A DNA stretch of 57,847 nt, filler included, from Stramenopiles sp. TOSAG23-6 (taxonomy: Eukaryota): assembly GCA_900128565.1 (NCBI GenBank). It is 3 parts of 3 records of this genome, joined end to end, with 100 filler letters (N's around TTAATTAATTAA, not from the genome) between each part and the next. Parts side by side here need not be neighbours in the genome. Positions count along the whole stretch, not along the records: positions 1 to 19,267 come from LT636051.1; positions 19,368 to 38,584 come from LT636053.1; 1 more part is not named here. One strand, given 5' to 3'. The position numbers were made by a program, and so were the translations under genes. The notes under the pieces are model-generated. The model did no database searches. It was not told the origin of the DNA and saw nothing but the letters and a program-made list of their open reading frames with translations. Positions 1 to 57,847 of the stretch are shown here, one piece after another. The number at the start of each line of letters is the position of its first letter. The first letter of the stretch is position 1.

Positions 1-53
1 TGTACCTAACAAATTTTAGTTTTTTTTTTTTGAAATATTTTTCCAAAATACAT
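1..53 (+). other. Family intron, 3' part (ends CAT)
   Basis: TGTACCTAAC...GAAATATTTTTCCAAAATACAT. Confidence 0.8.
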
Positions 54-306
54 GAATTTCCAATCATTCGTTTTCAAAATAGTGATAATTTAGTTATTGC
101 AATTATTGATAAAGAAGGAGGCGAAGATAATAAAACAATAGTTTGGCTACTAAGACGTTCTTATCACCACACAAAAGATTCTGAGTGGGAAGCGACTGGT
201 ATTTCATTTGATGAAGATACTGAAAACCGTGCTGAACCAAAAGTTTCATTTTATGGTAGCGTCACTGGAACTCCGTCAACATATCCTGCCGATCGTGGCG
301 AAAGAT
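54..306 (+). CDS. Open exon between two family introns; link to the TBC exons uncertain
   Basis: Stop-free frame EFPIIRFQ...YPADRGER. It joins the TBC frame only if the next intron ends at 404 (AC). Confidence 0.5.
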
Positions 307-406
307 GTATGTTTTATTTTGTTTCAAATTCGATTTTTTTTTCTTACGAAATTTTGTACCTAACAAATTTTAGTTTTTTTTTTTCAAATATTTTTCCAAA
401 ATACAT
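307..406 (+). other. Family intron, GT-AT (406) or GT-AC (404)
   Basis: Full family consensus; frame is kept only with an end at 404. Confidence 0.7.
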
Positions 407-3400
407 AGTGGCAAAGACTTTAATTGTCTTCAAGCATCATTGCGATTCTTTTCTTTATTGTTGCAGTACCATGATCCTAAACTCGCTAAGTTTCTTGATC
501 AATACAAACTGCCTCCATTTATGTATATACGTTTTTAACATTCATTTTTGACCTACATTTTTTGTATAGAAATTTTTTGTACTAACGAATTTTTTTTTTA
601 CTAAAAAACTAAAAAAAAAATATTTTTCATAATACATGCAACGTCATGGTTCCTTACATTATTTTCACACTCTTTAAGTTTGATCCATTTATTTCCTGTT
701 TGGGATTTTTACATTATTGAAGATAATCCATTTGCACACCATTTTCTTGCTGTGGCAGTCATGTATGTTTTCATCATTTAACCCTAATAACCCTAAATTA
801 TTTTACTATGAAAATTTTGTACCTGACGATTTTTTTTTTATTTGTACAAAAAAAAAAATATATTTTTCACAATACATGATTGATCTTGGAAGGTCTCTAA
901 TGTCAGCTGAATCTGAAACGGATGGTAGACTCAATGTGTCTAGAGATTTACTTATGCAACAATTACTTCGATGTCAGAAACGTATGTATGTTTTAGTTTT
1001 TTTTTTTGTATGAANTTTTTTTTCGTACGAAATTTTGTACCTAACGAAATTAATTTTTTTTTTTTGAAATATTTTTCCAAAATACATGAGGGTCGAAGGT
1101 CTTGGTCGTTGTGGTGGTCATATATGGTTTCATCATTCATTTCGATTTAATTTTTTTTCATACGAAATTTTGTACCTAACATTTTTGTTTTTTTAATATT
1201 TTTAATTATTCATGGTAGTGGTGTCCGAAGATTATGTGAATCCGCGAGACATCTTTTAGAAACAACTCCTCGATCGTTCACTGCGTTACTCAATGAAGTA
1301 TGTTATTCCAAATCTCAACCTAGTGCTACACTATTGAAAAAATTAGAAAGATTACCTTGTCTTGAAGTCCTACCGGGAGAACTTGTACGCAATGCAGAGG
1401 AACAACAGCGCGAGAGAGAAGTGGAGGCAGGAAATATTGTTCAAGAGATTGAACGTATATCAGTCACAAATGTTGGAGTCTCCCAAGTTGCTTCGAAATG
1501 TAAGTATTTCGTAATGGACTGTCGAAGTGTTGCATCATATGATGCTGCCCATTTCTCTATATCTTATCGATTATCGCCTGATTTACTTGATGAAGGAATG
1601 GGAGAACTCTCTGAAATTTTAGATAGTTTCTCAGCAATGAAGGAATGTAATTTATGCTTTGTCGGTGATGCATTGGATTTAAATAAAAAGGAAAGTGTAG
1701 GAAGCAAAGCTCGTACATTCATAAAAAAAGGATGTAGGTTTTTATCATCAATTTCAAAAAAAACAAAATGTATGATAAAAATGTTGTATCTGACAAACGT
1801 TTTTTTTACAAAAACAAATTATTTTTTCACAATACATGGAAACGTGGATTTACAGATAATGACGAGGATGATGATGCTGTAAAATGGGGCGTTTCGACAA
1901 GATTCGCATTGCTCTTTTTACAACGTGGATTTTCAAAGGTAGCTATTGTACCTGGTGGTTTTCCAGCTTGTTTGCGGAAGGCAGGTAGCAGAAGCTCAAT
2001 ATTTGTAAATTGTGAACCAATTGAGAGTGTAAAATGCGACAATAATGTTGGTATGGTGGAGAAATTTTTAGGTGATCATTGGGGTGGAGTAAATAAGATG
2101 TCTTCCATCAAATCTCTACGAAGAAAACAAACACCATTGCGAAATGCAACCGATGCTAATGCTAGATATGCATGGAAATCTTTTAAAGGTCTTTTTATTA
2201 GTGAAAAAACAAAACTAGCATTTCCAAAAATTCCTCTTCCACCAATAGTAACACCAATATCTTCATCTGTGCTTGCAATAAAATGGAAAGATGAAGATGA
2301 TTCTATAGACAAATTTGTACTTGAATATAAACAAGTTCCTTCAGATGGTGATGAGGTCATGACAAAATTCGGTAGAGCCACATTGTGTTGTATACGTAAA
2401 GATGGTATCGCAACTCATTCGTTACATGATTGGAAACTTGATAATGGAGGAATTGTAAATGTGTTTATACCTTTGAGAGATATATGTTTCTCTCCACCAA
2501 AAGTGATTGAGAAATTGCATGATAAAAATAGTGTTGTGAAATGTAAGCCAACGATAGTAAAAATGGAAAATGATAAATGTTTGCCAGATGATCGTTTCGA
2601 GAGTAAGGAAATTTCAAACAAAAAAGTCGTAGAGGTTTCTGAATCCAAAGTAGAGGAAATAAAAACTTTTTCTGTACAATCGAAAATAGATACTCGTCCT
2701 ACTACTTTGGAGAGCAGAAAACATTTTCGTTTGGAAACATCAACTGAATGGCTTAGAGCAAATAATAATGTTCCGATAATTTCAAAATCTAATATCGGAT
2801 TGCCTCACAAGCCTTTTCTTTTAGGCTCTGCTAAAGAAAAGGCAACAACAAAGAATCATACATTTTCTATATCTGTACCATCACCTTTGCTCCCTACATC
2901 TAGGTACTGTGTTCGATTGAGTTCTCACAATTCACAAGGCTGGAGTCATTGGTCATCCCCATCACTACCTGTTTATACTTTATCTCTAGAAGAAGAGGAG
3001 AATCGTGCAAATGAGAGAAAACGAAAGCAAGAAGAAAGAAATGTTGCTTTACAGGCACAAGTAAATATGGAAAGTCGTGAAGGATTAGTATTTTCTGTTG
3101 TATTTGATAGTGGACCTTTAGGTTTGTCACTCAAAGGTGGGAGCATTGGGGGTACCTCTGTCGCTAGAACTAAACCTAATGGTCAAGCTGAATGTCATGG
3201 GGTACAAGTTAATGATGTTGTTGTTGGTGTTGGAGATGAAACTATACTAGACGAAGATTCAGTGGAGATTGTTGTAGCGAAAGTTAAAGCCCATTCTCGA
3301 CCAGTAAAAATTAGATTTTTGCGAAAGACAACACAAGTATCCTTGAATACAAACACAAGTATGTCAAGACTGAATAGAAAGTGTCAAAATGGAAAGAAAG

Positions 3401-4218
3401 ACTCCACAGTTGATGAAAATTCTCAAAAGAAGCATACTGAAAAATCTGATGCAAGTTCATCGAAATTAGCAAATAGCCGAAATTCATTTGGTATTTCTTT
3501 TGGAAAGTTAGGAGGAAAATTTAGCAAGTTAAAGAATAAAATTATGAAAACTGAAACTCATCCTACAAAACGTAATGGTGATGTTGTAGGTCCTTCAGAA
3601 AGAGGCCTCATTAATATCTCAAAATGGCGCGAAGACCCAAAGAAACGTGGTAAATATAAAGATGTAGAAGATAGTAAAATGGAATTCTTTTCATGTTTAT
3701 CGGCTGCTGATGCTTCATTGGAGGGTGCAGATATTGATGATTCACAACGCTGGTTAGTCGTCAATGACTCTTACGTAATGTTTGTTTTATCTTTTTACAA
3801 ATTTCGAATTTTTTTTCGTACGAAATTTCGTACCTAACGATTTTTTTCAAAGTATTTTTCACAACACATGTGTATTTTAGAAGATTCGGAGTATTCTGGA
3901 TGGGGGTCACTGGAAAATAAGTTTCAGTATCGAAATCTTGTAAAAATTACAAGTAAAAAATTAGCAGAAAATGTTTTAATATTTTATATTAATTGTGTTG
4001 ATGATCATGGTCAAGTAGAACTAAAAACATTTTTTTATACAATTGTTAATGCCATGAAACGTCGAGATTGTGTTGCTTCGATTATGACGAAATATAAAGA
4101 AGCGGTACAGAAGGAGAGTTGTCTGAATGATTCCACTACAAATAAGAAATATAAAGAAGTGGTACAGAAGGATAGTCGTCTGAATGATTCCACTACAAAT
4201 AAAAGTTTATCGCCGTAA
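407..4218 (+). CDS. TBC1D23: TBC1D23-like protein, 5'-partial: TBC domain C-half, rhodanese-like, split FN3-like, PDZ, C-terminal PH-like domain. Exons 407-526, 638-762, 878-985, 1088-1121, 1214-1733, 1838-3779, 3870-4218
   Basis: Spliced translation gives LLQYHDPKLAKFLDQYKLPPFMYATSWFLTLF, LLETTPRSF, YFVMDCRS (rhodanese), FDSGPLGLSL (PDZ) and LVVNDSYVMCILE...LVKITSKKLAENVLIFY. These match the TBC1D23 domain order. Confidence 0.85.
527..637 (+). other. Family intron, AT-AT
   Basis: Removal gives PPFMY|ATSWF (TBC YAxxW). Confidence 0.8.
763..877 (+). other. Family intron, GT-AT
   Basis: Removal gives AVM|IDL. Confidence 0.85.
986..1087 (+). other. Family intron, GT-AT
   Basis: Removal gives QKRM|RVEG. 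Confidence 0.8.
1122..1213 (+). other. Family intron, AT-AT
   Basis: Removal gives GGH|GSGVRRL, in frame with TTPRSF. Confidence 0.8.
1734..1837 (+). other. Family intron, GT-AT (diverged)
   Basis: Removal gives KKG-W-KRG, linking the 182-aa and 689-aa ORFs. Confidence 0.8.
3780..3869 (+). other. Family intron, GT-AT
   Basis: Removal gives SYVM|CILE; contains the perfect palindrome GTACGAAATTTCGTAC. Confidence 0.85.
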
Positions 4219-4435
4219 TTAAGAAAACATTTTTTTGATATTCGTTTTAAATAAATATATTTTACATAAATGAGGAATATCTACGTATACCTATACGAGT
4301 TATAAAATACTTTTTATTTTGTAGAGTAAGACAACAAATTTTAATGTATCCCTCTTTTTCACTACTTATAGTTTTATTACCATATAGAATTATCTAGGTT
4401 ATTGTATTCATCTGGAGATTGTAGTTGATTTAGTT

Positions 4436-7400
4436 TTATAACCATGTAGAATCATCTGGGTTATTATATTCATTTGGAGATTGTAGTTGACTTCCATCTA
4501 TTGTATCTCCTATTTCATTTCTATCAACATCTTCTTCTTGATTGGTGCTTTCATTCTTTTGAACTTGCTTATCAGTTTTACCAAGAATTCCCATATCATT
4601 ATTTATAGGAACTACCTTATTACTGCGCTTGAAAGAAACGACTCTAGAGGGATACTGAAGCTGATGTGTATCTCTATCATTATCTTTTAAATCTTCATCT
4701 TTTATATCATCATCTACTTCCTCTTTCAGTTCATCCAGTAGTTTTTTTCTACGACGTTGTTTATGTACTAGGATTTTGTTACGACGTGTTTTTTTTTTTT
4801 TTTCGATCTGTTCTACCGTTTCGTTTCCTAAAATTTTTGCTTCTTTCAGTAATCGCTTGTGGCGTCGTCCTGCTTTTAGCAATTCAAAGAAGCTTAAAAA
4901 CCCATCATTATTCTCGTCAAATTCTTCCAATGCAAGTACATAAGGTTCGAAATATTTATCTACCCTCAAACGTATATTAGGCAACATATAAAACAGGAGA
5001 CACGCTCCATAGACACCTGCAATAATATTACCGATGATGAGAAAATCACCCAGTTTTTCATCATTAGAAGTAAACAATTTGCCAGATATTAGAAGGTTTG
5101 CATAGAATGTGATAAATATCATGATTACTAGAATCATTTGGAGAATAAAATCGGCAGTCCGTTTATATGGCCTGACCCCTGTAAGTATTGTAAGAAACAA
5201 CGCAGCAAGAGTAACACCAACCGCATTTTGTTCAATTCCTTTATCGAACGCAGTCAACATACCAGTCATCATTGCCTTTCGAACCATTTCAACAAACTCA
5301 TACCACCATATCTGTGAACGATAGCATAAAAAAAGGGAACCATATGTACTAATGACTCTGTGGTGCATATGGAGTAATTCTTTATTCTTGGATATTGCAT
5401 GAAACATCTCATTCGGCATATCCTCTTCTGCAATTAGCCAATGACGGACTTTGTATAATGATATTAAACCACAAAGAGGAATTCCTATTACATAAAGAAA
5501 TATACAGACGGTTGCTGTCAGGCGAAGTATATCATAATTTGGACCGTCGCATTCTATACTAATATCAGAAGTGAGATAATTCTTTCCATTTACAGAGAAA
5601 CAATTGAATATTTGAAAGCATCTGACGGTTAATCCTGTAATGAATTGTGATTGTATTTTAACAATGTGTAATGTTAGATTAAGATTAAAAATTTTCATTA
5701 TAAGATAGTTAAAAATAGATCGAATGCAAACTTACCTGGATACATGATAAATATTATTGCCCAAAGGACCCTCCTCGCGTTCATCTTTGCAGATTCACGC
5801 GAAAAATTAGCAGAAGGCTTACAGATAAGAATTAAAGACGCCGTTACAAACGCAAGTGATACCATTATAGCCATCAGTGGCGGCAAGGACATATGCGCAT
5901 AAAATTTTTCGGCGAAGTTTGTAGAAAAGTGACACATGTCAAAATAACCGAAGATCTTCATAAAATCCATATTAATAAAATTGCAATTCGTGCAAAATGT
6001 TTCAAATTTGCTAGGAAATGGTTCGCCTGTAGTGTGTCTCGTTTGGGATATTACTTGTAGATATGATATCAGAAGTTTAATTGTGGCTAAAAGCTCTGCC
6101 CACATATGAACTATACGATGTGACATATGATGACCTAATTGAACCTTCTTTCCATGTAAGCTTTTTCGTCGAAGTCTCTTACGGTGTTCCTTTGCTGATA
6201 TTGGCTCCCGTCTCACTTTCATACTCATTTTCCCCATAAAATCTTTTCTACCGTGTTTTGTGCTTATTTTTCTTGCTAAGGTATGTGCACTGATCGAATG
6301 TTGTCTCAATATTTGGAGTTTCTCTGCCTTAATTTCATCAACATATAAGCCTGTCTTATTTGCCTTTTCCATATTTGCTAAAACATTGTCCTGCATTATC
6401 GCAAATTTTGCTGCCAATTTTAGTTTGTGTTGTATGGATATTCTTTTTTTAGCAGCAGCATCACTAAATACAACTTGATCGGCTGACATTGTCATTATGA
6501 GTAATAACACTATATACAGTGTACAACCCATGACAATAATAACGGTATTCATCGGCGATTGTTTTTCAGGAGAAGAACTACAGTCTCTGCAATTTATATG
6601 ATTTGAATCTAGAACCCAGTTTTCACCATCTACACAACCATGTTTCCACTTCAACTGACATTCGTGTGCACAGACACCAGTATCTACCTCGTTACATTTT
6701 TCTTTGATACATTTATCAAATTTCGTCGTTGAGCAACATATACTGCATAATGGTCCAGTATGACCTTGAGCGCAATTTTGCCAATCATTACCACCAAGGC
6801 AAATTTCAAGAGCAGCGGACTCAGGAACTATATACTTTCCACAATTAATTGGACCATTTGTTGAGAATTCATGTGGTCGTAGTTTTGCGTTATCGTAGAT
6901 TTGCCAGAATCCTGGTGCAAGTGCCATTTTTCTTGTATTTACTTTTGTAAACAATGAAATACCTTTAATACAATGTTTTCTATCAGCTTCCGTCGTATTG
7001 GTGGATACACGAGCTGCTATTTCGTCACACGCACATAATGTGCCTACAGGACATGGTGAACATTGGAGTTGAAATGTCTCTTTTTCTTGGAGCATTTCTA
7101 CTGGGATATCGGTGACTGAAGAAACACCGAATTTTGCCAAATCTAAAGACGTCGTAAAGCCACTTGTTTTTCCAAGGTTTTCATCTAAAAGTGGAATTAA
7201 ATGAGCAAAATGCATAGGAGGACACTCACAACGAGAGTGTGTTTGATCGCCCAATTCGAGAAATACACCTGGGCATTTCTCTGGCACAAGTGAACCAGTG
7301 CCACAAAATTCATCTTCCTGACAGGCTCGTATTTGGTCTGCGGACCTACACGAAGAATTTGGTGGGCATACCGAAACATCAAAAGATCCACTTTCACAGT

Positions 7401-10400
7401 ATGCTGCTTCCCCTGTGTCAATTTGACAAGCTACTTTTGTTGATGGATCAGGACAATAATGACCTGCTGGACACGCTCCTCGGGAAGAGGATCCAGCTTC
7501 ACAATAGTAAGCTCTATCCTTTGAAGATGACTGAGCATTATCACATTTAACTTTTGTACTTGGTGTCGTTATATCATTACTGACGTAACTACAGTAGTGC
7601 CCCAAAGGGCAGATGCTACGCACACTACTTCCTTCAGGACAATAATCGCCCGAGCTACATCGAAGTTCGGTATCAGCGTAATTTTGATTTATGGGGCAAT
7701 AATGCCCTTTTTTGCATTTAATTGGTGAACTTCTCAATGGATGTTCAGCAGAACTGCAGTACATCCCTACGCCACAGATTTGTTCTGTCGAAGGGGTCGG
7801 GCAATAATATCCATTTTGACAGACGCCCTGTTCTACATTTGATCCGCTGCAAAATGAGCCAATCTCACAAAGTGTCTTTGAAGATGGAGTGCTACAATAA
7901 TAGTTCTCAGGGCAATTTGATACTTCTTCTTGTCGGTAAGATCGCAAATGTTCGCATGTCTTTTTATTTCGTGCGTGTGCGAGTAGGGTATAATCATTGT
8001 TAATAGCAAGGATACATCTTTCAGTGACGTTGACTAATGTTCCAACTATGAAATTATCACCTTTTCCTATAACAACTGTATAGTGATTGTTTCCGTTTGT
8101 TTTTTTACACCCAGTGCCATTATCACATTCACTAATACAGTTACCTTCCATGTCCGTACAAGATGGGATAAATCTTCCTCCAGTTACTCTCACAATCAAA
8201 TGGGCTGTTGTTTGTGTATTATTGTCACTTGATGCAGTATCCTCGGAAGTTTTAGTCTTGTCGGAAGTTTTAGTCTTGTCAGAAGTTTTAGTCTTGTCAG
8301 AAGTTTTAGTATCCTCGGACGTTTTAGTGTCCTCGGAAGTCTCATCAGAATCAGTAGATGATTCGCTTTCACGACCAACAGTCTTTACAGAAGTTGCAGA
8401 TGTCCTCGGTGTTATATACCCTAATGGAGGTATTATAGGTGCATTTATCACTATTCTAGGTAAATTATCTTCAGCGCAGTTGTTTTCTGTGTCTATAGTA
8501 ATCACTGGATTTATAACACTCCCAACATTATTTACTGAGTAAGTTCCTTTAGGTTTACATAAATCATTTTCATTTTCAAATTGCATTTCGTAGTCACCAG
8601 TTTTATATGGGCCGGGGTTTCCTCCATTGTCTACAACTGTCACAATTAGTTCTGAATTTACAAACTCCAAGGCAAGTTCTGCGTGTCCAGAGTCAATTTC
8701 TTGGGTTACTTGCATATTCCATAAATGAACAGATGTGTCATCCGGAATTGAAATAGATGGTCTTACATCACAGTTTATATCTTCATCCAACATAACAGAC
8801 CCAATATATCCTTCACTATTGACAATAAATGAACCAGATGGATCTGGTGTACATCTCCCTTCATCATTACTAAATACTACATCATATTCACCAGGAACGT
8901 AGTTTCCATGACCTTCATTAATTATACTTATATACTTGATATTGTCGCTGTCGTCAATTGTAGAGCTACCAACACCCGAATTTGTAGAGGTATCACTCCA
9001 CCCAATAACCCCACCACCGCTGATGGCATACAGCGGGTTATTTACATCAAGATCAAAAATTGTAAGGGTTGCTTCCCATTGTACACCGTCGTTTTCACAA
9101 TATCCGCCTCGGGCATCACAACTGGCAGAAGTATGCGTATTACTGCAGTATTGTCCACTAGGACATGCTTGTTGTATTGATTGACCTTCTGGGCAATAAT
9201 ATCCATTTTTACACTCTTGTCGCTCTTGTTCTTGTGCAACTGTCCAGTTTGACTTACTCCAATTTCTCCCTGCAAATACACAATCCTCATTATTTCCTAT
9301 GTCGTCTCTTCCAATACATCTTCCGCATGACCTTTCATCAGTGAAAATAATCATTGATATTTTGTCATCAGCTGAATGATGAGTTATTAATGTTTGACTA
9401 TATCCTCTTTCCACAGTCAAGGTGGAATACTCCCCACTATCCGCATCATTATAAGTTGTTATTCCTTTGACAAGAACTTTTTCCCAATATTTATTTCCAT
9501 TTGTATCAAGAATTGAATTACTGGACTCAATTTTTAATCTACTCCCAATAGATATTGGATAATTATTATCACTTAATATATCCAAAGTGCTACTGTTTAT
9601 CGTTATACTTTCCCTAAGAATAGACGTAGTCAACATACTACACTCACCTGCTGGACATCCCAAACACGCCGTGGGACAGTAGCCACCCTCTACACAACTT
9701 TGGGCTCTTACATCTTTTGAACCTTCAGTACAGTGACTACCAGCAGGACAAATTCTTTTCACTCCTGGGGTTGAACAGAAATAACCCGCTGGGCAAGGTG
9801 ATACCGTTAGGGGTTCCCCGAGTAATCTGTCTTTGCCGCAATATTGACCTGCTGTACATTGTATTAGAGTTTCAGGATTTGGGCAATAATAACCGTCGGG
9901 GCATTTTAATGGCGAAAATACTCCAACTGGACAGTATGTTCCGTTGATTTTACACGGATATTTCTCACTTGATGTGGGACAATAGTGACCCACATCACAA
10001 GGTTTTGGTTCTTCCGAACCCTCACTACAGTAATTGGCACTTACAGGACTTGGCAAAGGCTGATATTTTGTTTCCGACCAATTTAGAGAAATTTTGATGG
10101 CACTTGATTTAGTTCCACAAGGAATTTCTTCTTCAGAATATTCTCTCTTCGCTCGCCATAATTCAGTTTTTGCGATATCGCTCACAAACTCCACTTCTGG
10201 ACTCTGTTTCCAAGCACGCAAACACACATAAGTTTCATCTGGTACATTAGCCCATGTCAAATACCCCCCCACTGGAATTGTTATAGCGTTCTGTTGAAGT
10301 TCAGCATCTTTTGGGACTCCCATTACTGTTCCATGTGAATATAATTTCTCGTTTTCCTTTACGCGTGATAACGACGAATGGATATATATCATATCTCCAT

Positions 10401-16400: not shown

Positions 16401-19232
16401 AAGAACAAAGCTTGTCTTCAATACAGCTATCCTCTGAAAGATAAGAATTACATTTTGTTTCATATTTTGGATAACACAGTGATGTATTACATATATTTTT
16501 TGGAAATCGCTCGGAGTAATATTCTTGTCCGTCGACAGAGTCACACACAGGGCAACCATTAGATGTTTCTTTTGTCGAACCAATCGGTGATGGTGCACAT
16601 GGGGTACAACATGGTCTCGCTACGCATGAATTTTCTAGAACAATACAGTCATATATAGAACCCTCAGTTTCACACTGTCCTACGCCATACCCTCCACAAA
16701 TACCACTGTTTATCGCGGTACACTTATTTTGACAAAAATTAAGACCACTTGTTGGCGTCTTTTCTATTATTTCGCTAAACCCAGCGACATCGAATCTAGT
16801 TATAGGTGAGCCGCCATCGCTTCCACAACGCCATGTCACGAGTAAATCAGGGGAACTATTTGTTTTTTCTATTGAAACTTCGACTTGTGTCGGTTTTGAT
16901 GGAGTTGAGGCTGTCATGCTAAAGGCAAGGATACGCGTGTATGGTGACCATCCGACTGGGCTGAGTGATCTTCCACGTACCAGAAGTTTGTCTGTAGTGA
17001 TACCATCCCATACTACAATTCCTTCGTCCTTTATTCTTGGTGTCCAGCTCCCGCCTTCTTCCAATAATTCAAATTGTGTTTTTATCACGCTTTTCATATC
17101 TACCTCAACACGCCTAAGCTGGAACAACTTCGTACCCGCTTCAACTACTTTATCAGCAGAAATTTTGTCGATCGGAATATTTCGCGGTCCAGAGCATTTC
17201 CATAACTTTGTTCCCTCTTCAAGAGTCATTTGTATATTTTCTGAAAATATAGAAATTGTCATATTTTCATTGATGACTTCTACATGTGTGATGGTTCCTA
17301 TAAAAGTATTTTTGTTAATACATACACCATCTCCAATAGTAAAGTCATCTATTAAAGTTGGATGTTTAGTTGTAATTGTAAGAATTTCACGATTTCTGAG
17401 GGTATACCCTGTAGCAGTTTCGGTCTTTTCTGAGTGCTCTACTAAAGCAAATTCTTTCATTTTTCGTTTTCCTATTTTTGAGTTGTATGGGAGTATTACT
17501 GCATTAGGTTCTTCCAATGTAATCACACCATTCCTAGTTTTGGTGTTGATGTTGGTGTTGATGTTAGATTTTGCCACAACACCAACATAAATTCCGACAG
17601 AATCTCCAGATGTCGAAAGTAAAACTACATCCCCAGGGTAAAAAAAATCATCTATTTTTGACGACTTCTTTGTATTTTCGTAGTGAATTATTGTTGTTGT
17701 GTGCTCTTTTGGTATCTCTATTTTTACGATGAATTTATTAAAGTTAATTTTTTTTTGTTGAATAAATAACGCGGAACCATCTGTAAGTATTCGTGTAGTA
17801 TTTTCACCTTGGATAGAAATATATTTATCTCCATCGGAATATGAATTAGCGATAACTAATCCTGTATCTTTGTAAGTTGCCATATAGTTACCCTTATTGG
17901 AATTATCTCCTTTCCAGCCTGGCATTATTGGTATTGGACGAGAAAGGACAGCGAGGTTTTGCGCTGTCGCTATATGCTGTATTTTTTGGCCTAATGCAGT
18001 TAAAGGATTTCCGCCATTTTCATTTACATCACGCCATATGGGAACATCCACTTCTGTGCTCAATATCTTATGCGATGTTTTTGGTTTACACGGGTATGTA
18101 TCGGAGTCTGTTTTTTCATAAACACAAAATCTAACGTCACATTCAGATCCGGTTACGGAGCTATAACATTTATTTGTACAAGTTCCTACAGTAGTTGCAT
18201 TGTCCGTGTAAAAAACATTAATATCAATACCCCATTCTAAGTTATCATTCCATATCCTAGAACTATTGGCATTCATCTCGCATGATTCGCGAGTATCCAA
18301 TTCATGAAGTTTTCTAAGATGAATAATATTTGAATTTTCATCATATTTTACTTCACTGCAATGTGGAGCTTTACAGCTAGATTCATCTCGTGAATACCCA
18401 TCGCTGCACTTCAAAATTTTTAGTTCACATTTATACCCCTTGTCAATCTTGTCTTGCCAAGTGCAGCCGCCTTCCTCTTTACACGTTTTTTCGTCTAATC
18501 CAGCACAATTTTCTTCGCCTATGCAAGAATCACACATAGCTTTGTCAAATTTTTCAACATTTACCAACACTGAGGTGTCATTTTCATGTGTTGTCTTCTC
18601 AACCTCTGCGTAATATTGTGTGTTTTTTGAAAGTGAAAGTTTCTCTCCCTTAATATACCTTCTTCCTGCTAGTCCAAAAGTACTCTCTATTGGCCACATT
18701 TGTAATAACTTATCCCATTTACATACTTCATGGTTAACTGTACATGTATCCTCGTTTACATGCATTTTACAATTATCATACATTTTTTTCCATGGTCGCT
18801 GGATTTTATAAGTCGTTTCCCCCTGGATTGGTACTACAACACCTTCAAATGATTCGATAGTTGCTTTCCGTGTCCGGGCATTATAAAATGTGATACGTGT
18901 AATTAGTCCTGCCCCCTTTCCTCCTGTGAGTACGAGAGTGTGATTTACCAGTTCATTATTATTTCTTGGCATAGAATCCCAAGTGGCACCAGGAAATCCA
19001 TTCGCAAATGCAACAGTAGAGCAGTGTAACTCTACGGGAGTTGAAACATCATGGAATGCAGCATTTGTACTTTCTACACCACGTGCAACATTCATCTCAT
19101 CATCACCTATTTCTGTTAGTTCCATAATTTCATCATCCACTAAAAAAAGAACCTTTTCGCCAATGTCTTGAAACGAATTCAAAAGATCTGCAATTGTATT
19201 AAATGGGGTGTTAGTCACCAAATTTTCTTGTA
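4436..19232 (-). CDS. Giant (>4800 aa, 5'-truncated) cysteine-rich surface protein. It has GCC2/GCC3-like CPxGxYC repeats, beta-rich repeats, an FN3-like unit, a C-terminal multipass membrane domain and a cytoplasmic EF-hand. One intron at 5635-5735
   Basis: The 4507-aa and 420-aa ORFs join by a GT-AG intron (IMYP-G-LTVRCFQIF). Many CPxGxYC repeats; hydrophobic helices (KLLISYLQVISQ, LYVIGIP, WWYEFVEMVRK); loop DENNDGFLSFFE. Confidence 0.85.
5635..5735 (-). other. GT-AG intron with weak family resemblance
   Basis: GTAAGT...ATGAAAATTTT...CTAAC...TACAG; removal gives MYP-G-LTV. Confidence 0.9.
8240..8345 (-). repeat. 18-bp coding tandem repeat (SEDTKT/SDKTKT, about 6 copies)
   Basis: GAAGTTTTAGTCTTGTC recurs. 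Confidence 0.9.
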
Positions 19233-19267
19233 GAAGAAGGTATATTAAGGGAGAGAAACTTTCACTT

Positions 19268-19367
19268 NNNNNNNNNNNNNNNNNNNNNNNNNNNNNNNNN
19301 NNNNNNNNNNNTTAATTAATTAANNNNNNNNNNNNNNNNNNNNNNNNNNNNNNNNNNNNNNNNNNNN
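19268..19367. other. Artificial contig linker (N-run, TTAATTAATTAA, N-run)
   Basis: Six-frame stop linker between N-runs. Confidence 0.95.
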
Positions 19368-19422
19368 GTACAAAATTTCGTACGAAAAAAAAATAAATTT
19401 GAAATTCATAATGAAAACGTAC
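19368..19422 (-). other. Family intron, 5' part running into the gap
   Basis: CAA|GTACGTTTTCATTATGAATTTC...CGTACGAAATTTTGTAC. Confidence 0.8.
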
Positions 19423-22400
19423 TTGAACTTGCAACACTTCTAAAGGTACAATAGAGGTATGTGTATGTAATGCTTGAATACTTGATTTCTGATATTTTTT
19501 TTTATCATTTTGATTTTTTGTTATAAATCGTGAAAATTCTACATGTAATTTTAGGAAAATATTTCAAACATTTGATTTTTTAGTTAAATACAAAATTTTC
19601 ATAGTAAAAAAAAATTTAAAATTCATTTTTTTGTAAACGTACATGATGTTTTTCGTCCCATCTAGAAGAATAACCATCAAAACGTACAACTACAATTCGA
19701 GTTTTTGGATTTTTTAAATGTTCATTTAAATGTTCATTTAAATGTTCATTTAAATGTTCAGTTTTATTTTGAGTGTGATTTTTAGAATTTTCGAAAGTAA
19801 CATTATTTTGGTTGGTCGATACATCATCATCATTTGTTCCAGTAGTTGACTGGTGTAAAGGTTTATCAACATTTTCATCAACATTTTCATCAACATTTTC
19901 ATCAACATTTTCATCAGCTGTTTTTTTCATATCCAACATTTTACTTTCTCTCTCTAAAGATTCCTCAATAGTTTCTATTGATATAATTGTAGCTTGTAGC
20001 CAAACACCTTCTTGATCAAATACATCAACTCTACCATTCACTACAAATAAATTATCATTTTTTTTGATACTATTCGAATCCATAATATCGGGTATATCAT
20101 TTTTTTCCTCACTTGTTGTACCCAAGGAATTTGGATTTTTTGGATTTTGTTGAGTATTCATTGATGTGAAGCTATCATCATTTGTAGTCGTCTTGTCATT
20201 ATCGACATCTTTTTTTTTACTAAACCAATCACCAATTGAAAAAGAACTTTTTTCGGACTTTTTTTTTTCCAAATTTAATTTTTCTTTCAATACAAAAAAA
20301 TCTTTTGGATATTCGAAAGCAACAATGGCATGATTTCGTCGACGTGGAAGGACTTGAACCGATTGATGATCACTGTAAACATTTGCTAACAAACCAGCTC
20401 TTAATTCATACAACTCGAGCCGTGAATGAGTTACACCACCTGATAGTAAAAATATATATATCACACAAAATAAAAATTATTAGCTATGAAATTTTCTATG
20501 AGAAAAACAAAACTGAAATTCATAATGGAAAAAGTACACTGTTCTGAAAGTTCTCTCTTCAAATCTCCTACTGCGCTCAATTGAGGCAACAAAATTGTAT
20601 ACTTTGTTGCCGTCCTACGTAATTTCATATCATCATTTTTATTGTTTTTTCTTGGCGAACTGAAATAAACGATAACAGAAATCGAAATTTGTTTCACGGG
20701 AAGTTGAACTGATACAAAATGCAGTGGTTCAAATCTCAAAGATCTATATCCACATTCTCCACAAGTTACGCTTCCTCGTTCCATTCCAAAAAAGAGATCC
20801 GCTATAGCAGATCTGTTTCTTTTTTTATATTCTATCCAAGCTTCTTCAGCTAAAACTCTATCTGGTTTTGTTATAATTTCAGAATCGCTTTCTTTTCTTT
20901 CAATGAGCTTAGTATCAATTTTATTTTTATCAATGTTTTTATCAATATTATTAGTAGTATTACTATCAATATCATCATCTTTATCATTACTATCACTATT
21001 CTCAGTTCTATCACTGGGTAATTCTTCAACTTGTCTTGCTAACTCAATGCCACATTCATCTTTAACTTTGTTTGTGTCATTTTTGGTACCATTTAATACT
21101 ACAACATCGTCCTTAGTTTCACAATTCGATTCTTTTTGTGGTTTCTTCGGTTTCACATTTTCTCTTACTCGTTGAAGATCTTCATGACAAGACATTAAAC
21201 ATGTATTTTGGAAAAATATTTGAGAAGAAAATTCGTTAGGTATAAAATTTCGTACGAAAAATAAATTCGAANTTGNAAAAAAAANAAAACATACNTGACA
21301 ACGCAACTTCTTGAGCATCCTGTTGCTCACATCCTTCAAATTGAGTATGACATGGATTGTAAAAAGATACGTTACACAAGCGATTGTTTGTTTTGTTAGT
21401 TTGAACATACACACACAGAAAAAAAAAAAAGGTAAACAATTTATGAAAACGAAAACATATATGAACTTAAAACAGCTTTGAAATCATTTGGATATATAAA
21501 ACGTCTTCCATTCGAAGAAGGTTTTTTCCATAACATTTTCAAAAGGTTTGCAAAAGAACAAACAAAACGGCCACCCGATCCAAATTTGTTAGTTACATTA
21601 ATTTGTGTTTCCCATGTATTGAGAAAAAATATTTTTTTTTGTAAAATTTGTTAGGTACGAAATTTCGTATGAAAACCAAAAAAAAAAATTAAATTAGAAA
21701 TTCATATCAAACGTACACTGATCCGAAATGAGAAAATTTCTCAGTAATGGTGCATGACTCAAACATTGCAGAACAGAATTCATATAACAAGTATTACCTA
21801 TATTAGCCAATCCTACAGCACCACGACGATCAGCTTTTCCTTTTCCAGAATGTATTTTGGAAAAATATTTCAAAAAAAAACCGTTATGTACAAAATTACG
21901 TACGAAAAAAAATCGAATTTGAAAAAAAATAAAAACATACATCAAACATTCTACCAAGACCAAGACCATATGATGTATTGTGAAAAAATATGTAATTTGA
22001 TGTTTAATTGTTAGGTACGAAATTTACTACAACAACAAAAAAAATGAAATTCATAATTAAAATGTACATGAATAAAGACCACGAGAGGTATTCCATCGAT
22101 TAATTTTTTGTTGTTGTTTGCGCCGTGCAATTGTTTTTTCCGTGGTGTGAGTTCCTAGAGGCGCAAGCTTGTCGCTATTTGATAAAAACATTTCATCCCA
22201 CTTACTCGACCAACCACAAAAATTAATTCGAAGTCTTTGAATTGGTATAGAATTATTATTATTTTCATCATTTGAAAGATTATTTCCATTATTAGTACTA
22301 TCATTACTTGATTCAACATTTTCTATTTGACCATGTACAGTATTTTCAGTTGTGATACTAACGACCATAGATTCATACCAATTGCCTTCTTTATCACACG

Positions 22401-24660
22401 CATCCAAGCGATCATTTACCTCAAAATTACGAAATCTTTTGTTTTTTTCCTGTGCTACATCAGCAGGCCATCGAAATGTCAATTTTTCTTCTTCTTTTAT
22501 CTTAGATTTTTTTGGGTTGGGGATATCTGTAGGGATATCTGTAGAGGCAATGGAAAGAGCTTGTTCCACCATAAAAGCATCACCAGAATTAACAATGAAA
22601 TTTGGTTCAATATTAATCTCAGTATCATCATTTGTAGTATTATCGAAATGCTCGCAATCCAAAGAATCTAAAGAATTGTTCATACGCTCGGGAGAAACAA
22701 GAACCCATTCTCCTCCAGCAGATTTGTGCCATAGTCGTAAAGGCATTTCTTTCGTTTTTTTAGAAGAATTGTTTTTCTTTTTTTTCTTTTTCTTTTTCTT
22801 TTTTTTCTTCTTCTTACCAAATATTGTCCATTTTTTATCTCCCTTATCTTCACAATTATCGAAATTATCGAAATTATTCAAAATATCACTATTTGAATCT
22901 TTCGCTACAAGCACATGTATTCTTTGATATGCAACATCAAGTAATTGTTGAAAAGTGTTTTTTTTTGATAAACTAATGCTTACAGTGGGGCTCTTAGTGT
23001 CAGAATAGCCGCTTGTTTTATTCATCCAAACACATTTAAATACCAAAGGATATAGCTCAACTGCTCCTCGACAACAAGAACTTGGCATATCAATCTCGTG
23101 AGGCATAGGTACTCCCACATTCATGTATTGTGAAAAAATAATTTTTTTTTTTTTGGAAATTTATAAAAAAAATCGTTAGGTACAAAATTTCATATGAAAA
23201 AAAAATCAAAATTCATGTTGAAACACGTACAAACGGTCTTCTACTACAAATCTTCCAAAAATAGATCCAAGTTTTGAACCATACCATTCATACATTATTA
23301 TCCATAATTTCTCTGGGAATAAAACAAAATCACTAAATTCAGCAAGACCCGGTCGTAAAGTACCAACAAATGCACCCCTAATATCGCTATTATCAATGGC
23401 AGCAGGTTTGTCACCATATGAATGCGATAAACTTCGATTCATATCTAATCTTTGATAACCTGAAGACGTCGATGTCTTGATTGATTCATTGAAATGAACT
23501 TCATGAACAACTTCACTTTTATTGTTTCTATCTTCAGTTCCACAATCAGTAGAAGTATTACGTATTAAACTACTTTCTATAATTGATGTTTCATTAGGGT
23601 TAGGGTTACGTATTAAACTACTTTCTATAATTATTGATGTTTCATTATTTTGTGTCGAGGGAATTTCACTACTTTTTTCTTCAAAAGTACAACGACCCGC
23701 TGCAAACCAATCAACATATTCCGTCCATTCATCCCACCATGTTTTAGATACAACAAACCATGTCTGACCACGGATAGCTCGTCTATTTTGAGAGTCATTT
23801 TCAGTCAACAATCTAAACACTATATCACGTTCATCTGAAGCTGAATGAAGAGGAGAAAATGCTTTTAATAATCTAGACGCGTCAAGATTTTGCCCCTCTA
23901 TTGCCCATTTACGAAAATCCTCATATTCTATTTGTTTAGACACTACTGGCAATATATTCAATGATGAATTTTCCGAATTCTCCAAAGATTCTTCATTTTC
24001 TTTTGTAGTCAAATTAATAGGTTTGTGTTGTTCAAAAAGAACGCGTTCTTGTCTACGAATCCAACAAGACGCACCATCTGTATGAGGACCTACTGAATTG
24101 TTTGCCTTTTTTGTAGTATTATCTCGAGGAATAGAAACACCAAGACTAGCACCAGGCGAAACAACAGCTGTCTCAAGCAAAGTTCGTATTTCCACGTTTG
24201 AAAGCACGCCGTCGTTGTTCAGATCAAATAGATCAAAAACAAGTCGAGCTTTTTCTTCTGGTGAAGCTATGCAACATATACTAATGGCAACGCAAAACTC
24301 GCGAAAGTCTAAAACTCCATTCTCGTCGTGGTCAAATAAACGGAAAGCATTTGAAATGATGGAATCGGGAAAACCAGAATGTTGAAACTCCTCACGGAAA
24401 ATACCTGAAAAGTCATCTTCAGTCAATTTTGCTGTTACACCAAACTCAGATGATGTACATGATTCATCTGAATTCATATTTGAAGCAACAGCCATACGAA
24501 ATTTGCGGAGAAGTCGCTTCACGTCACTGTGCTTCCAGTTGTCCAGAAGCGAATTAGTATAATCGAGATATAGTAAGTCGTCAGTGCTTAAAATCTTTCC
24601 ATCTTTTTCGCGTCTCCACAATAAAGTGCCTTTAGCACGGACACTGTTACATATCCCCAT
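19423..24660 (-). CDS. USP32-like ubiquitin-specific protease (EF-hands, DUSP, UBL, catalytic domain with Tudor/Agenet-like inserts), 3'-truncated by the gap. Exons 24660-23231, 23122-22068, 21972-21941, 21849-21717, 21613-21461, 21351-21295, 21200-20538, 20439-19643, 19542-19423
   Basis: EF loops DHDENGVLDFRE and DLNNDGVLSNVE; DUSP motifs WFVVSKTWW...PAAIDN...WYG; Cys box GLANIGNTCYMNSVLQCL; QQDAQE; CHEDLQRV; SAIADLFFG..CGECG. Confidence 0.9.
19543..19642 (-). other. Family intron, GT-AT
   Basis: Removal gives WDEKHH|VEFS; CAT|GTA is repeated at both junctions. Confidence 0.8.
20440..20537 (-). other. Family intron, GT-AG
   Basis: Removal gives LSEQ-C-GVTH; family internal motifs present. 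Confidence 0.85.
21201..21294 (-). other. Family intron, GT-AT
   Basis: Links QQDAQEVALS to LMSCHEDL. Confidence 0.85.
21352..21460 (-). other. Family intron, AT-AT (diverged)
   Basis: Removal gives FKAVLSS-C-HTQFEG. Confidence 0.8.
21614..21716 (-). other. Family intron, GT-AT
   Basis: Removal gives SDQ-W-ETQIN. Confidence 0.85.
21850..21940 (-). other. Family intron, GT-AT
   Basis: Removal gives RMFD|SGKG, leading into the Cys box. Confidence 0.8.
21973..22067 (-). other. Family intron, GT-AT
   Basis: Removal gives LYS-S-YGLG. Confidence 0.8.
23123..23230 (-). other. Family intron, GT-AT
   Basis: Removal gives VEDR-L-NVG; the upstream exon ends TT. Confidence 0.85.
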
Positions 24661-24895
24661 CGTGAAAATATATGAATGGTGTAGTAGAAATAATTAGATC
24701 AGCAGTTCTGAAGATAATTTTGCAATCTCAAAATTTAATCTATATAAGAATAAGATTCTTCTGAAATCTTTGAACGTGGCACGGAAACGCACGAAATATT
24801 GATGGATTGTCTAAATAAATCGAAATTCAAAAAAGAAGTCAAAAGAAGTAGACTTTTCCATCTGATAAAGATTTCAAAAAGTATATCCAAGATGA

Positions 24896-24955
24896 TATTG
24901 TTTGGGTGATCTGTCGATATCATTATTATTGTTTGGGTGATCTGACGATATCATT
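24896..24955. repeat. 31-bp-period tandem duplication in the divergent USP/kinase intergenic region
   Basis: TATTGTTTGGGTGATCTG(T/A)CGATATCATT twice. Confidence 0.85.
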
Positions 24956-24973
24956 GTAGATAGAATTATTGCG

Positions 24974-26166
24974 ATGGGTGTGTGTGCTTCAAAGACGTTC
25001 CCAATTGAATTATGCAAGGAATACGAAGTCGTTGAGGCTGTCACTTTAACTCTTGCTTTAACTCATCCTTTAACTTCTGTACATGGCGAATTTTATGCGG
25101 CCACACGAATAATGGATGAGACTCCAGTGGCAATAAATAAATACGTATTAAAAGATGAAAAAAACGCACAGTACAAGCAAGAAATGGAAGATATGCGCCG
25201 TGAACTTGGACTCTTTGCAAAGATGAAGCATCCTAATATTCTTGAATACATTGGCCAGTTTGAAACTAAGAAGGAACTCTTTCTTGTGACTGAGCAAATT
25301 AAAGGAGGAGAGTTGTGGCGCACATGTCGAGAAAGGATAATTTTCAAGGAACCACATGCACGACACGTGATTAAGAGTTTGCTTTCTGCTATAGATTATC
25401 TTCATTCGCAAGGAATCGTCCATCGAGATGTAAGACTGGAGACTTTGCTGTTTAAAGAAAAGGTATCGACAGATATAGATGACCCAATCAACTCAACAGT
25501 AAAACTGCATGGGTTTTCGCTTGCGGTGACTGTTGGCGATGATGAATATGGTGGTATTTCAAAAGCTGGTGGGATGCGTTTAGTTCCTCCTGAAGTGGCT
25601 GGTCATATGTTAAAAGAAAGGAACCCAGATCATTGTGACCTTTATGAAGTATCTGGAAACGACAAAACTCCTCTCAACTATGGGAAACCTGCTGATATCT
25701 ATTTGATAGGCTGTGTTACGTATGAATTAATCTGTGGCTATCAATTATTTGATTTTAAAAAATCTGAGATGGCTGTCGTCGATCTGTTGAAGGAAATATC
25801 TAAGGTATGTTTTATTTTTTTTTCAACTTCTATTTTTTTTTCGTACGAAATTTTGTACCTAACGTTTTTTTTTAAATATTTTTTCACAATACATGGTTAC
25901 CTTGAATTCCATTCTCCATATTGGGATGATATATCCGATAGCGCAAAGGAATTCGTCAAGTTTTGCATATATGTTTTATTTTTTTTCAATTTCGAGGTTT
26001 TTTTTTGTTTTTTTGGTTTTTTATAAAAATTTTGTAATTAACAAATTTTACAAAAAAAAATATTTGTTCACAATTCATGGATGTGAACCCAAAAACGAGA
26101 CCCAAAGTGAAGCAATTGATGGAGCATGCATGGATTAAGAAATCAACTAATTCCAAAATGTTCTAA
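24974..26166 (+). CDS. CAMK-like protein kinase, probably a pseudokinase. Exons 24974-25804, 25895-25968, 26079-26166
   Basis: HPNILE, GGEL, IVHRDVRLE, YGKPADIY; spliced C-terminus ISKGYLEFHSPYWDDISDSAKEFVKFCMDVNPKTRPKVKQLMEHAWI. Confidence 0.88.
25805..25894 (+). other. Family intron, GT-AT
   Basis: AAG|GTATGT...ACAT|GGT gives ISK|GYLEF. Confidence 0.9.
25969..26078 (+). other. Family intron, AT-AT
   Basis: Removal gives KFC-M-DVNPKTR. Confidence 0.85.
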
Positions 26167-26230
26167 TAATTAATTATACATTTGTTTATTTCATTTTTTA
26201 GCAAAATTATTATTATAATAATTAGAAATA

Positions 26231-28501: not shown

Positions 28502-28760
28502 TTGAATACTCTGGCTTATTAGTATGTAGTATTATTTTTCGTAGAAGAAAACAAACAGACTTGAGATTCAATTTTTGAGACTGACTTCCAAAGTAATAAA
28601 AACACGAAAAGTCACCGATTTCGATTTGCTTTTCAAAATGCATGGAAATTCTTAATTTAATTTCCCAAATCGGGCGTTTCTTATAAAAAAACAAAACAAA
28701 AAAACAACACATATTTATATCATATATCATATCAAAGTATTTATATAATGTCATCAAAGT

Positions 28761-36029: not shown

Positions 36030-36243
36030 AAGGAAGTATCTTTTAATCTATGTTTGACATTACTTAAAACTGCTTGGAATAGTATTAGGCACAAACAAAA
36101 GAAAGTTCCTCCGTACAGGAATTTGAAACTGTCACAGAGAAATCCGTTTTTTTCTGAATTTTTCTTGAAAAAATATGCGCAAACGCTGCGCAAACCTGCC
36201 CAATTTAAGAATTTATTTTTTATTATATATTGAATATTTATCA

Positions 36244-57792: not shown

Positions 57793-57847
57793 ATGTATTG
57801 TGAAAAAAAAATGTAGTCNAAANTTNTTAGGTACAAAATTTCGTACG
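57793..57847 (-). other. Family intron, 3' part (ends CAT)
   Basis: CGTACGAAATTTTGTACCTAA...TTTTCACAATACAT|C TGT GTA CAA. Confidence 0.85.

Follow-up and report, generated by a model that had tools for sequence, protein, structure and literature searches.

Nearly all introns in a 57,847-base stretch of DNA from Stramenopiles sp. TOSAG23-6 (assembly GCA_900128565.1; hereafter the window, 30-41% G+C, containing eukaryotic genes) are, by the similarity of their sequences, copies of one introner-like family, most members of which end in AT. Thirty-two complete introns were found, of which 31 belong to the family or resemble it and one is an unrelated canonical GT-AG intron (5635-5735). Four of the family introns start with AT as well as ending with it. 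These four had been put forward in the original prediction as AT-AT introns with relaxed first and last bases, and they probably represent independent G(+1)-to-A variants within the family. For the family as a whole we favor removal by a major spliceosome whose 3' rule is YAY instead of YAG, as in the tunicate Fritillaria. According to a more far-reaching reading, to which we give a probability of roughly 45 per cent, an uncultured marine stramenopile (MAST-3-like) has, independently of tunicates, replaced YAG by YAU/YAY as the genome-wide 3' rule of its major spliceosome. The driver would have been an invading introner whose target-site duplication supplied the 3' end, and a purine-U terminal pair would let both GT-AT and AT-AT introns splice.

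The family was collected with an nhmmer profile made from copies that carry the GTACCTAAC motif. At a cut-off of E<1e-3 the profile gave 31 matches, which correspond to 27 complete introns (one of them matched twice) and three cut copies, and which are spread over seven genes. Four more diverged family-like introns (19543-19642, 21352-21460, 47830-47949 and 49310-49436) were recognized through weak matches or by eye. Profile columns were used to assign the borders: an intron begins with the first base of the GTAYGT (or ATAYG) block and ends with the final T of the ACAT block. Among the 31 introns the median length is 100 nucleotides (nt) and G+C is 19%, and identity between copies from different genes reaches 93%. 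A 19-base family core occurs nine times in the window and was absent from 100 shuffles, so that the pattern far exceeds chance. Alignment of 26 copies revealed three conserved blocks: GTAYGTTTT at the 5' end, TTTTCRTACGAAATTTYGTACCTAAC in the middle and ATATTTTTYCACAATACAT at the 3' end. The layout of a typical copy, with slashes marking the exon/intron borders here and below, is exon ..AT / GTAYGTTTT ... TTTTCRTACGAAATTTYGTACCTAAC ... ATATTTTTYCACAATACAT / G.. exon. Comparison of profile coordinates with the gene models showed that every family copy lies in sense orientation to its gene.

One further full copy, with the same AT/GT...ACAT/ borders, was found on a public metagenome contig (L003, 35% G+C), where manual reading of the contig sequence and its open reading frames (ORFs) showed that the frame joins across the element. 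Among the four metagenome loci that contain the 19-base core, L003 was the only genuine family copy; the core was not found in viral contigs, and one Bacteroidales metagenome-assembled genome gave a match to the core only, with no full copy. The end of contig L003 carries telomere-like repeats similar to the AACCCTAA units that are present in the 5' third of introns 763-877 (+) and 27277-27385 (-). In most copies an almost perfect palindrome, GTACGAAATTTCGTAC, is formed by the block that precedes and overlaps the branch motif (e.g. 3815-3835, 21650-21670 and 45950-45970); RNAalifold found no conserved pairing for it, and it may be a feature of the element at the DNA level. Intron 26540-26670 (-) has a tandemly duplicated branch block, both copies of which read CTAAG, not CTAAC.

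Twenty-three of the 31 introns have GT-AT termini, four AT-AT and two GT-AC, with single cases of GT-GT and GT-AG. GT-AG termini were thus seen once among the family introns, or twice among 32 introns if the canonical intron (5735-5635) is counted, and 30 of 32 introns (about 94%) in these 58 kb are non-GT/AG. The last three intron bases are CAT in 22 cases, TAT in five, TAC in two, and CAG and CGT in one case each, so that 29 of 31 introns end in YAY, or 30 of 31 if the end at 48103 is taken as 48101. The intron ends AT, AG and AC, which had been listed in the original prediction, were all found, and GT was found additionally, at 48103. Two other expected features were confirmed for the whole family: the tallied terminal dinucleotides have T at +2 in 31/31, and at least three of the four bases from +6 to +9 are T, again in 31/31. 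The possible exception to A(-2) that had been pointed out, intron 48006-48103, is shift-equivalent to a GT-AC intron at 48004-48101, in which A(-2) can be kept as well. Between the two GT-AC introns, 49310-49436 is supported by homologs (Trp in 4/5) and 307-404 by the frame alone.

The dinucleotide that ends the intron also ends the preceding exon in 21 of 31 cases (binomial p=8e-15 relative to the AT dinucleotide frequency of 0.097). It is mostly AT and in one case GT; in that intron (48006-48103) the end GT matches the exon end GT, thus the intron end follows the exon. CAT or TAT stands directly before the 5' site in 14/31 introns and G is the first exon base after the intron in 21/31; the preferred site looks like (C)AT/G. 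The repeat resembles a short target-site duplication, although 2 nt of repeated sequence might equally stem from a preference for certain insertion sites or splice contexts. Where the repeat is present, i.e. in those 21 introns, the mRNA is the same for GT...AT splicing and for a cut 2 nt upstream (AT...AC). The ten introns that have no repeat are still in frame when spliced at GT and AT.

A target-site duplication would also explain why the 3' cut falls after AT, since the coding sequence is made whole again when the element is taken out together with one copy of the repeat. Introners of other protists have been described along the same lines (PMC7789003). Long ORFs were restored in this way in all six multi-exon genes that contain family introns: 1,485 codons in the USP gene (with EF-hands and a DUSP domain) after removal of eight introns, 870 codons in a dehydrogenase-like gene (aminomethyltransferase-fold dehydrogenase) after removal of eight, 1,065 aa in a TBC gene (TBC/PDZ/fn3) after removal of six, 341 aa in a protein kinase gene after removal of two, 579 aa in a C5 DNA methyltransferase gene after removal of five, and 616 aa in a further gene after removal of one. 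All of these are far longer than the ORFs present without removal; when left unspliced, these regions have longest ORFs of 349-699 aa. The homologs of the 870-codon product are 846-865 aa long, and seven of its eight junctions are gapless in alignments with five homologs, several of them falling within invariant residues (IEHQY/A, DDVD/ILHLAGP). Both kinase junctions are gapless relative to three kinases, the second one through subdomain XI, and five of the eight USP junctions are gapless relative to a 1,709-aa ortholog (P0124), the remaining three lying in poorly conserved stretches. In the TBC gene the Pfam RabGAP-TBC profile continues from 166 to 167 across intron 527-637. Conserved proteins are in this way restored with codon precision.

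The four ATAYG starts were located where they had been predicted, ATACG at 527 (+) and ATATG at 1122 (+), 21460 (-, down to 21352) and 25969 (+), and the corresponding AT ends at 637, 1213, 21352 and 26078. Homology fixes three of the four (527, 21460 and 25969) at the codon level, and for these three there is no in-frame GT/GC-AG alternative of equal length within 40 nt. For 1122-1213 there is an equal-length in-frame GT-AG alternative, 1127-1218, which makes this intron ambiguous. Introns 527-637 and 525-635 (AT-AC) yield identical mRNA. The alternative 523-633, a nearby GT that had been considered in the original prediction, would turn into His a Tyr that stands four residues before a Trp in the TBC gene and that is presumably conserved in TBC domains. 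Each AT-start intron has as its nearest relative a GT-start intron located in a different gene (identity 0.64-0.80), therefore A(+1) would have arisen four separate times. Thus, the positions and termini of the AT-AT introns were borne out, whereas their status as a class of their own was not: they appear to be scattered G-to-A variants of the GT-AT family. A pyrimidine at -4 (TCAT/CCAT, not ACAT) accompanies A(+1) in three of the four AT-start introns (1122-1213, 21352-21460 and 25969-26078) and is present in 2 of 27 GT-start introns (Fisher p=0.008, in a small sample); this association may reflect a compensating contact or chance.

Table 1. Introns of the window and the observations that support them. 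Positions count along the whole window; family, introner-like family described in the text.
Position	Strand	Feature	Support
1-53	+	family intron, 3' part, cut by window start	nhmmer
307-404	+	family intron, GT-AC (alternative TG-AT 306-406 also fits)	frame only
527-637	+	AT-AT intron, ATACG...ACAT, TBC gene	Pfam RabGAP-TBC 130-166 / 167-206 in flanking exons; frame
763-877	+	GT-AT family intron	frame
986-1087	+	GT-AT family intron	frame chain
1122-1213	+	AT-AT intron by family rule (ATATGG...TTCAT)	frame chain; ambiguous with equal-length GT-AG 1127-1218
1734-1837	+	GT-AT family intron, GTAGGT start	frame
3780-3869	+	GT-AT family intron, GTTTGT start	frame
5635-5735	-	canonical GT-AG intron, CAG/GTAAGT...TTACAG/, not detected as family	frame; 4909-aa ORF after removal
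19368-19422	-	family intron, 5' part, cut by N run	nhmmer; sequence
19543-19642	-	GT-AT family-like intron	weak nhmmer match; part of 1485-codon USP ORF
20440-20537	-	GT-AG family intron, only family copy with AG end	nhmmer E=5.5e-5; gapless vs P0124
21201-21294	-	GT-AT family intron	gapless vs P0124
21352-21460	-	AT-AT intron, ATATG...TCCAT, USP/UCH gene	gapless vs P0124, junction just upstream of QQDAQE motif
21614-21716	-	GT-AT family intron	gapless vs P0124, conserved Trp is junction codon
21850-21940	-	GT-AT family intron	frame
21973-22067	-	GT-AT family intron	frame; polyA RNA contig stop at exon edge 22068
23123-23230	-	GT-AT family intron	gapless vs P0124; polyA RNA contig stop at 23121
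25805-25894	+	GT-AT family intron without exon/intron repeat, AT-AC reading impossible	gapless vs three kinases; shift L=0
25969-26078	+	AT-AT intron, ATATG...TTCAT, protein kinase gene	gapless vs P0121-P0123, kinase subdomain XI
26295-26403	-	GT-AT family intron, TATAT end	579-aa DNA methyltransferase ORF after removing 5 introns
26540-26670	-	GT-AT family intron, duplicated branch block	junction codon yields LTPRE-C-ARLQGFPD, presumably a conserved C5-methyltransferase motif
26790-26883	-	GT-AT family intron	frame
27065-27182	-	GT-AT family intron	frame
27277-27385	-	GT-AT family intron	frame
45917-46010	-	GT-AT family intron	616-aa ORF after removal
47830-47949	+	GT-AT family-like intron, GTAAGT start; AG 10 nt downstream out of frame	junction IEHQY/A, conserved in 5 homologs
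48006-48103	+	GT-GT intron, equivalent to GT-AC at 48004-48101	gapless KR/VPVLRDL vs homologs; shift L=2
48409-48493	+	GT-AT family intron without repeat	alignment, Ile/Val column
49156-49254	+	GT-AT family intron	gapless vs homologs
49310-49436	+	GT-AC family-like intron	only AC end gives Trp of 4/5 aligned homologs
49564-49658	+	GT-AT family intron	gapless DDVD/ILHLAGP
50145-50246	+	GT-AT family intron	gapless vs homologs
50341-50440	+	GT-AT family intron	frame; 870-codon ORF
57793-57847	-	family intron, 3' part, cut by window end	nhmmer

The internal signals of the family are of the yeast type, a likeness that had been pointed out in the original prediction. The 5' site has the form [AG]TA[CT][GA]T in 26 of 31 introns, and an ACCTAAC-like branch motif (CTRAC, TTAAC or similar), followed in the alignment by a T/A-rich tract, was recognized in 30 of 31. 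In these 30 introns the distance of the branch A from the 3' end is 32-53 nt (median 39.5); eight of them contain, between branch and 3' end, an AG that is left unused. A GTRNGT-like 5' site able to pair with U1 and U6 and a YTRAY branch with a pyrimidine tract after it are features of U2-type introns, the usual termini of which (GT-AG or GC-AG, rarely AT-AC) are seen in one of the 31, as GT-AG. The resemblance to U12-type introns that had been seen in the original prediction comes mainly from the T run and the flexible termini, whereas neither the U12 5' motif RTATCC nor the U12 branch motif TCCTTRAY was found in any of the 31 introns, positions +5 and +6 being G/A and T. RNAalifold predicted no pairs for the 26 aligned copies, i.e. 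no conserved structure, and the terminal complementarity of 4-6 nt showed no compensatory change: U(-3) was found in 0/4 A(+1) introns and G(-6) in 2/11 C(+4) introns.

Between the modified major spliceosome and the diverged minor one, which had both been considered in the original prediction, the sequence evidence favors the former. We infer that the family would be removed by the major (U2-type) spliceosome through its strong yeast-like 5' site and branch site, the 3' splice site lying after YAY (CAT, TAT, TAC) instead of YAG. In this lineage the second step would accept U, and also C or G, as the last base and would still need A(-2) and Y(-3). According to published work, a non-Watson-Crick pair forms between the two terminal bases of an intron, with G-G and A-C isosteric (PMC13326754). 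We suggest that G or A at +1 may both be able to partner U(-1). With U as the last base either purine would be tolerated at +1, and G-to-A changes at that position would survive.

RNA contigs from four metatranscriptome runs (X1-X4) were matched to positions 21296-37680 at a likeness of at least 90%. Each of the runs X1-X3 gave 1,130-1,313 contigs and X4 gave 75. Most bins with family introns reached a summed contig depth of hundreds to thousands, and exon-only bins of the same genes were near zero. The depth being concentrated on the family introns, the sampled communities probably contain many more copies of the family than the window does. Three of the four runs, one of the two polyA libraries among them, showed this high depth on family introns (21296-27400). 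It could come from thousands of genomic copies, from abundant unspliced RNA or from stable excised introns. At three places the end of a polyA contig coincides with a predicted border or nearly so. One matches up to the predicted exon edge 22068 and has 42 further letters beyond the match. Another stop, at 23121, is one base before the predicted edge 23122 and leaves 60 letters; as there is a G on both sides of the 23122 join, it fits the prediction. At 21354 a polyA contig ends three bases inside the AT-AT intron 21352-21460, which is the first point where the spliced and unspliced forms differ because they share CAT. As evidence of splicing these contig ends are only hints.

Several observations speak against the explanation of the family as introner-like elements removed by a major spliceosome. 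The exon/intron repeat is absent in 10 of 31 introns. Among the 15 of 67 contig joints listed there was no exon-exon joint across a family intron; these 15 link different intron copies. At 25537-25857, 26694-26918 and 26620-26871 contigs read straight through introns; they come from X1 and X3, libraries described as 'RNA-Seq other' and not PolyA, and could be pre-mRNA or DNA. Intron 307 is out of frame under the GT-AT rule (307-406): the ORF is 1150 aa with 307-404 (GT-AC) and 1116 aa with 307-406. An assembly indel or error is a possible cause of this frame break. The preceding exon 54-305 (+) resembles the C-terminal part of avidin weakly (E=0.56) and gave no TBC match. Its membership in the TBC gene is uncertain, which affects the frame break as well, and so weak a match does not settle intron 307. 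Terminal inverted repeats longer than about 6 nt and an autonomous element were not seen by eye, with no dedicated search made; terminal complementarity is limited to about 6 nt (ATGTAT/ATACAT), and no transposase-bearing copy was noticed in the window. Because no long terminal inverted repeat or autonomous element was seen, a transposon origin of the family is suggested by analogy with introners only. Finally, the ACCTAAC branch has an extra C compared with the yeast motif and resembles the U12 branch motif in part.

Alternatively, the family might be removed by a diverged minor (U12-type) spliceosome, with small nuclear RNAs (snRNAs) that would have changed in step with the RTAYGTTTT 5' site and the ACCTAAC branch. 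RTA at +1 to +3 and the T run are shared with the U12 consensus, and 21 of the 31 introns can be written as AT...AC by a 2-nt shift. Blastocystis, a stramenopile, is a relative of MAST-3. It possesses the full set of four minor snRNAs, and of its 253 identified minor introns 77% are AT-AC; U12-type introns tolerate AT-AC, AT-AA and AT-AT ends, and among the non-canonical minor termini of animals AT-AA is the commonest and AT-AT the second (PMC10639083). Nevertheless, we consider removal by a minor spliceosome unlikely, since both U12 motifs score 0/31 and AT-AC is impossible in 10 of 31 introns. U12-type introns need a branch about 10-20 nt from the 3' end, and here the branch A is at 32-53 nt. 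GTAYGT is compatible with standard U1 and U6 pairing. Moreover, introns of this type make up 30 of the 32 in the window, and in nearly all other organisms only a small fraction of introns is minor (PMC10639083). The 2-nt shift also allows a reading in which true cleavage in the AT-repeat copies takes place 2 nt upstream at both ends (/ATGTAYG...ATAC/), these being AT-AC introns and GT-AT a mere convention. Both readings give the same mRNA in 21 of 31 introns, AC ends occur without any shift at 49310-49436 (homolog-supported) and at 307-404 (frame only), and 48006-48103 can be read as GT-AC. The shift would, however, move the GTAYGT block to +3 to +8, for which there is no known snRNA pairing, and the introns without the repeat (25805, 26403, 48409 and others) are in frame at GT and AT. 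At 48409 the shifted cut would yield Phe, by manual reading of the translation, where the window has Ile and 4/5 homologs have Ile or Val. Cleavage at the shifted positions is accordingly held to be improbable.

Removal without a spliceosome, either by DNA excision like that of the internal eliminated sequences of ciliates or by another RNA pathway like the one proposed for the non-conventional introns of euglenids, would be in keeping with short AT-rich elements that have non-GT/AG ends and a 2-nt direct repeat of which one copy is left behind, and the RNA libraries do hold intron-containing contigs. Such a pathway seems very improbable to us, given that the 5' site and branch motifs are conserved where a spliceosome would use them, that all copies are in sense orientation within genes, and that neither a conserved structure that would bring the ends together (0 pairs, 26 copies) nor compensatory changes in the short terminal complementarity (0/4, 2/11) were detected. 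It might also be argued that the AT-start copies are defective, either unspliced or rescued by cryptic canonical sites, and uninformative on what the spliceosome tolerates: 1122-1213 does have its GT-AG alternative, and AT-start introns are among the more diverged members of the family, as their identity to the nearest neighbor shows. This has a low probability in our view, because 527, 21460 and 25969 have no equal-length canonical alternative in their vicinity (the shift-equivalent AT-AC of 527 apart), and because the downstream exons are open and conserved, with about 540 more codons in the USP gene and subdomain XI in the kinase. Four independent G-to-A changes in 31 introns are also unlikely to be all recent lethal hits.

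Evidence on the host comes from the ORF of a mitochondrial-type IF-2, the best protein match of which is a EukProt coding sequence named GSMAST32... (88% identity; the runner-up has 57%). The name is taken by us to denote one of the MAST-3 single-cell assemblies of PMC5778133, and on the strength of this match a MAST-3-like stramenopile is the probable host. A tunicate of the Fritillaria type, which had been suspected at first, is made less likely by the same match. Parts of 20400-27500 are contained in five RNA runs, all of them seawater metatranscriptomes. The window also contains PNKP and other genes, and a search of the window against Rfam gave no matches. Two long ORFs, of 4,537 aa (5698-19311, -) and 2,428 aa (28761-36047, -), have no family introns and adjoin genes with 5-8 introns each; the intron load is very uneven between genes. 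The canonical intron 5635-5735 joins a 4,522-aa ORF to the next ORF, and AG is the only in-frame end among the nearby family-like ends. A family-like 3' motif, CACAATTCAT, ends 5 nt before this AG, where a CAT end would be out of frame. The start of the 2,428-aa ORF is a low-complexity stretch, a simple GAAGCA/GAAGTA repeat (35855-36030, -), at which RNA contigs break. Two contigs that stop at 35854 were considered as marking an intron edge, and this was rejected as the stop borders the simple repeat.

Non-canonical introns of the larvacean tunicate Fritillaria were reportedly described by Henriet et al. in 2019. In F. borealis and F. pellucida introns almost always end in YAY and YAY often stands just before the 5' site; AT is the commonest 3' end (34% and 44%, respectively), all intron classes need the U2-type spliceosome, the pairing regions of the snRNAs are conserved, and introner transposons are discussed as a possible source of the divergent splice sites (Soo et al. 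2026, PMC13326754). The window introns share with them the YAY ends (29/31) and the YAY before the 5' site (CAT or TAT in 14/31). They differ in that Fritillaria has diverse introns with mainly AG at the 5' end (AG/AC, AG/AT), whereas the window has strong GTAYGT sites and nearly one family, and in that Fritillaria is an animal and the host here a protist whose best match is a MAST-3-named coding sequence. Introners of the dinoflagellate parasite Amoebophrya have direct repeats of 3-5 nt that overlap the exon/intron borders, and over 60% of the introns of this organism are non-canonical, with no minor spliceosome detected (PMC7789003). Repeated introns, direct repeats at the borders and non-canonical ends are thus common to both systems. 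The Amoebophrya elements have inverted repeats of 8-20 nt, a hairpin that joins the exon ends and no fixed terminal dinucleotides; in contrast, the family described here has defined termini and internal signals, and the lack of a consensus structure and of compensatory changes sets it apart from hairpin introners.

Introners of Micromonas and Aureococcus carry canonical splice motifs and have both direct and terminal inverted repeats (PMC7789003). Like them, the present family is a short, non-autonomous element found in many genes in sense orientation, with what looks like a duplicated target forming part of a splice site; unlike these GT-AG introners, its members end in AT or AC in 29 of 31 cases (30 of 31 with 48006-48103 as GT-AC). 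With U12-type introns, among which AT-AT is a rare known class (PMC10639083), the family has in common a purine at +1 followed by T(+2), A(-2) and a last base that varies, whereas the 5' site and branch consensus and the position of the branch are different. For MAST-3 and related stramenopiles, neither GT-AT or AT-AT introns nor introners were found to be reported in the accessible portions of the literature, supplements aside (including PMC5778133, 10.64898/2026.04.17.719054, PMC12614181 and PMC12130899). Non-canonical introns linked to introners are already known; what appears to be new is the lineage, the dominant GT-AT terminus pair and the occurrence of a single family with intact U2-like internal signals.

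Why AG stands at the end of nearly all introns in eukaryotes, and what degree of departure from this rule a spliceosome can support, are open questions that have so far been approached mainly through Fritillaria. If our explanation is true, it would add a second, unrelated lineage, in which textbook 5' and branch signals are combined with non-GT/AG ends and which would therefore offer a natural comparison for the roles of the pair between the first and last base, of A(-2) and of U2AF-like factors. It would also offer a clear instance in which a non-canonical splice rule was fixed by an introner. Gene predictors that allow GT-AG introns only would break almost every multi-exon gene of such organisms, a problem that may extend to gene sets already published for marine stramenopiles on the basis of single-cell genomes.

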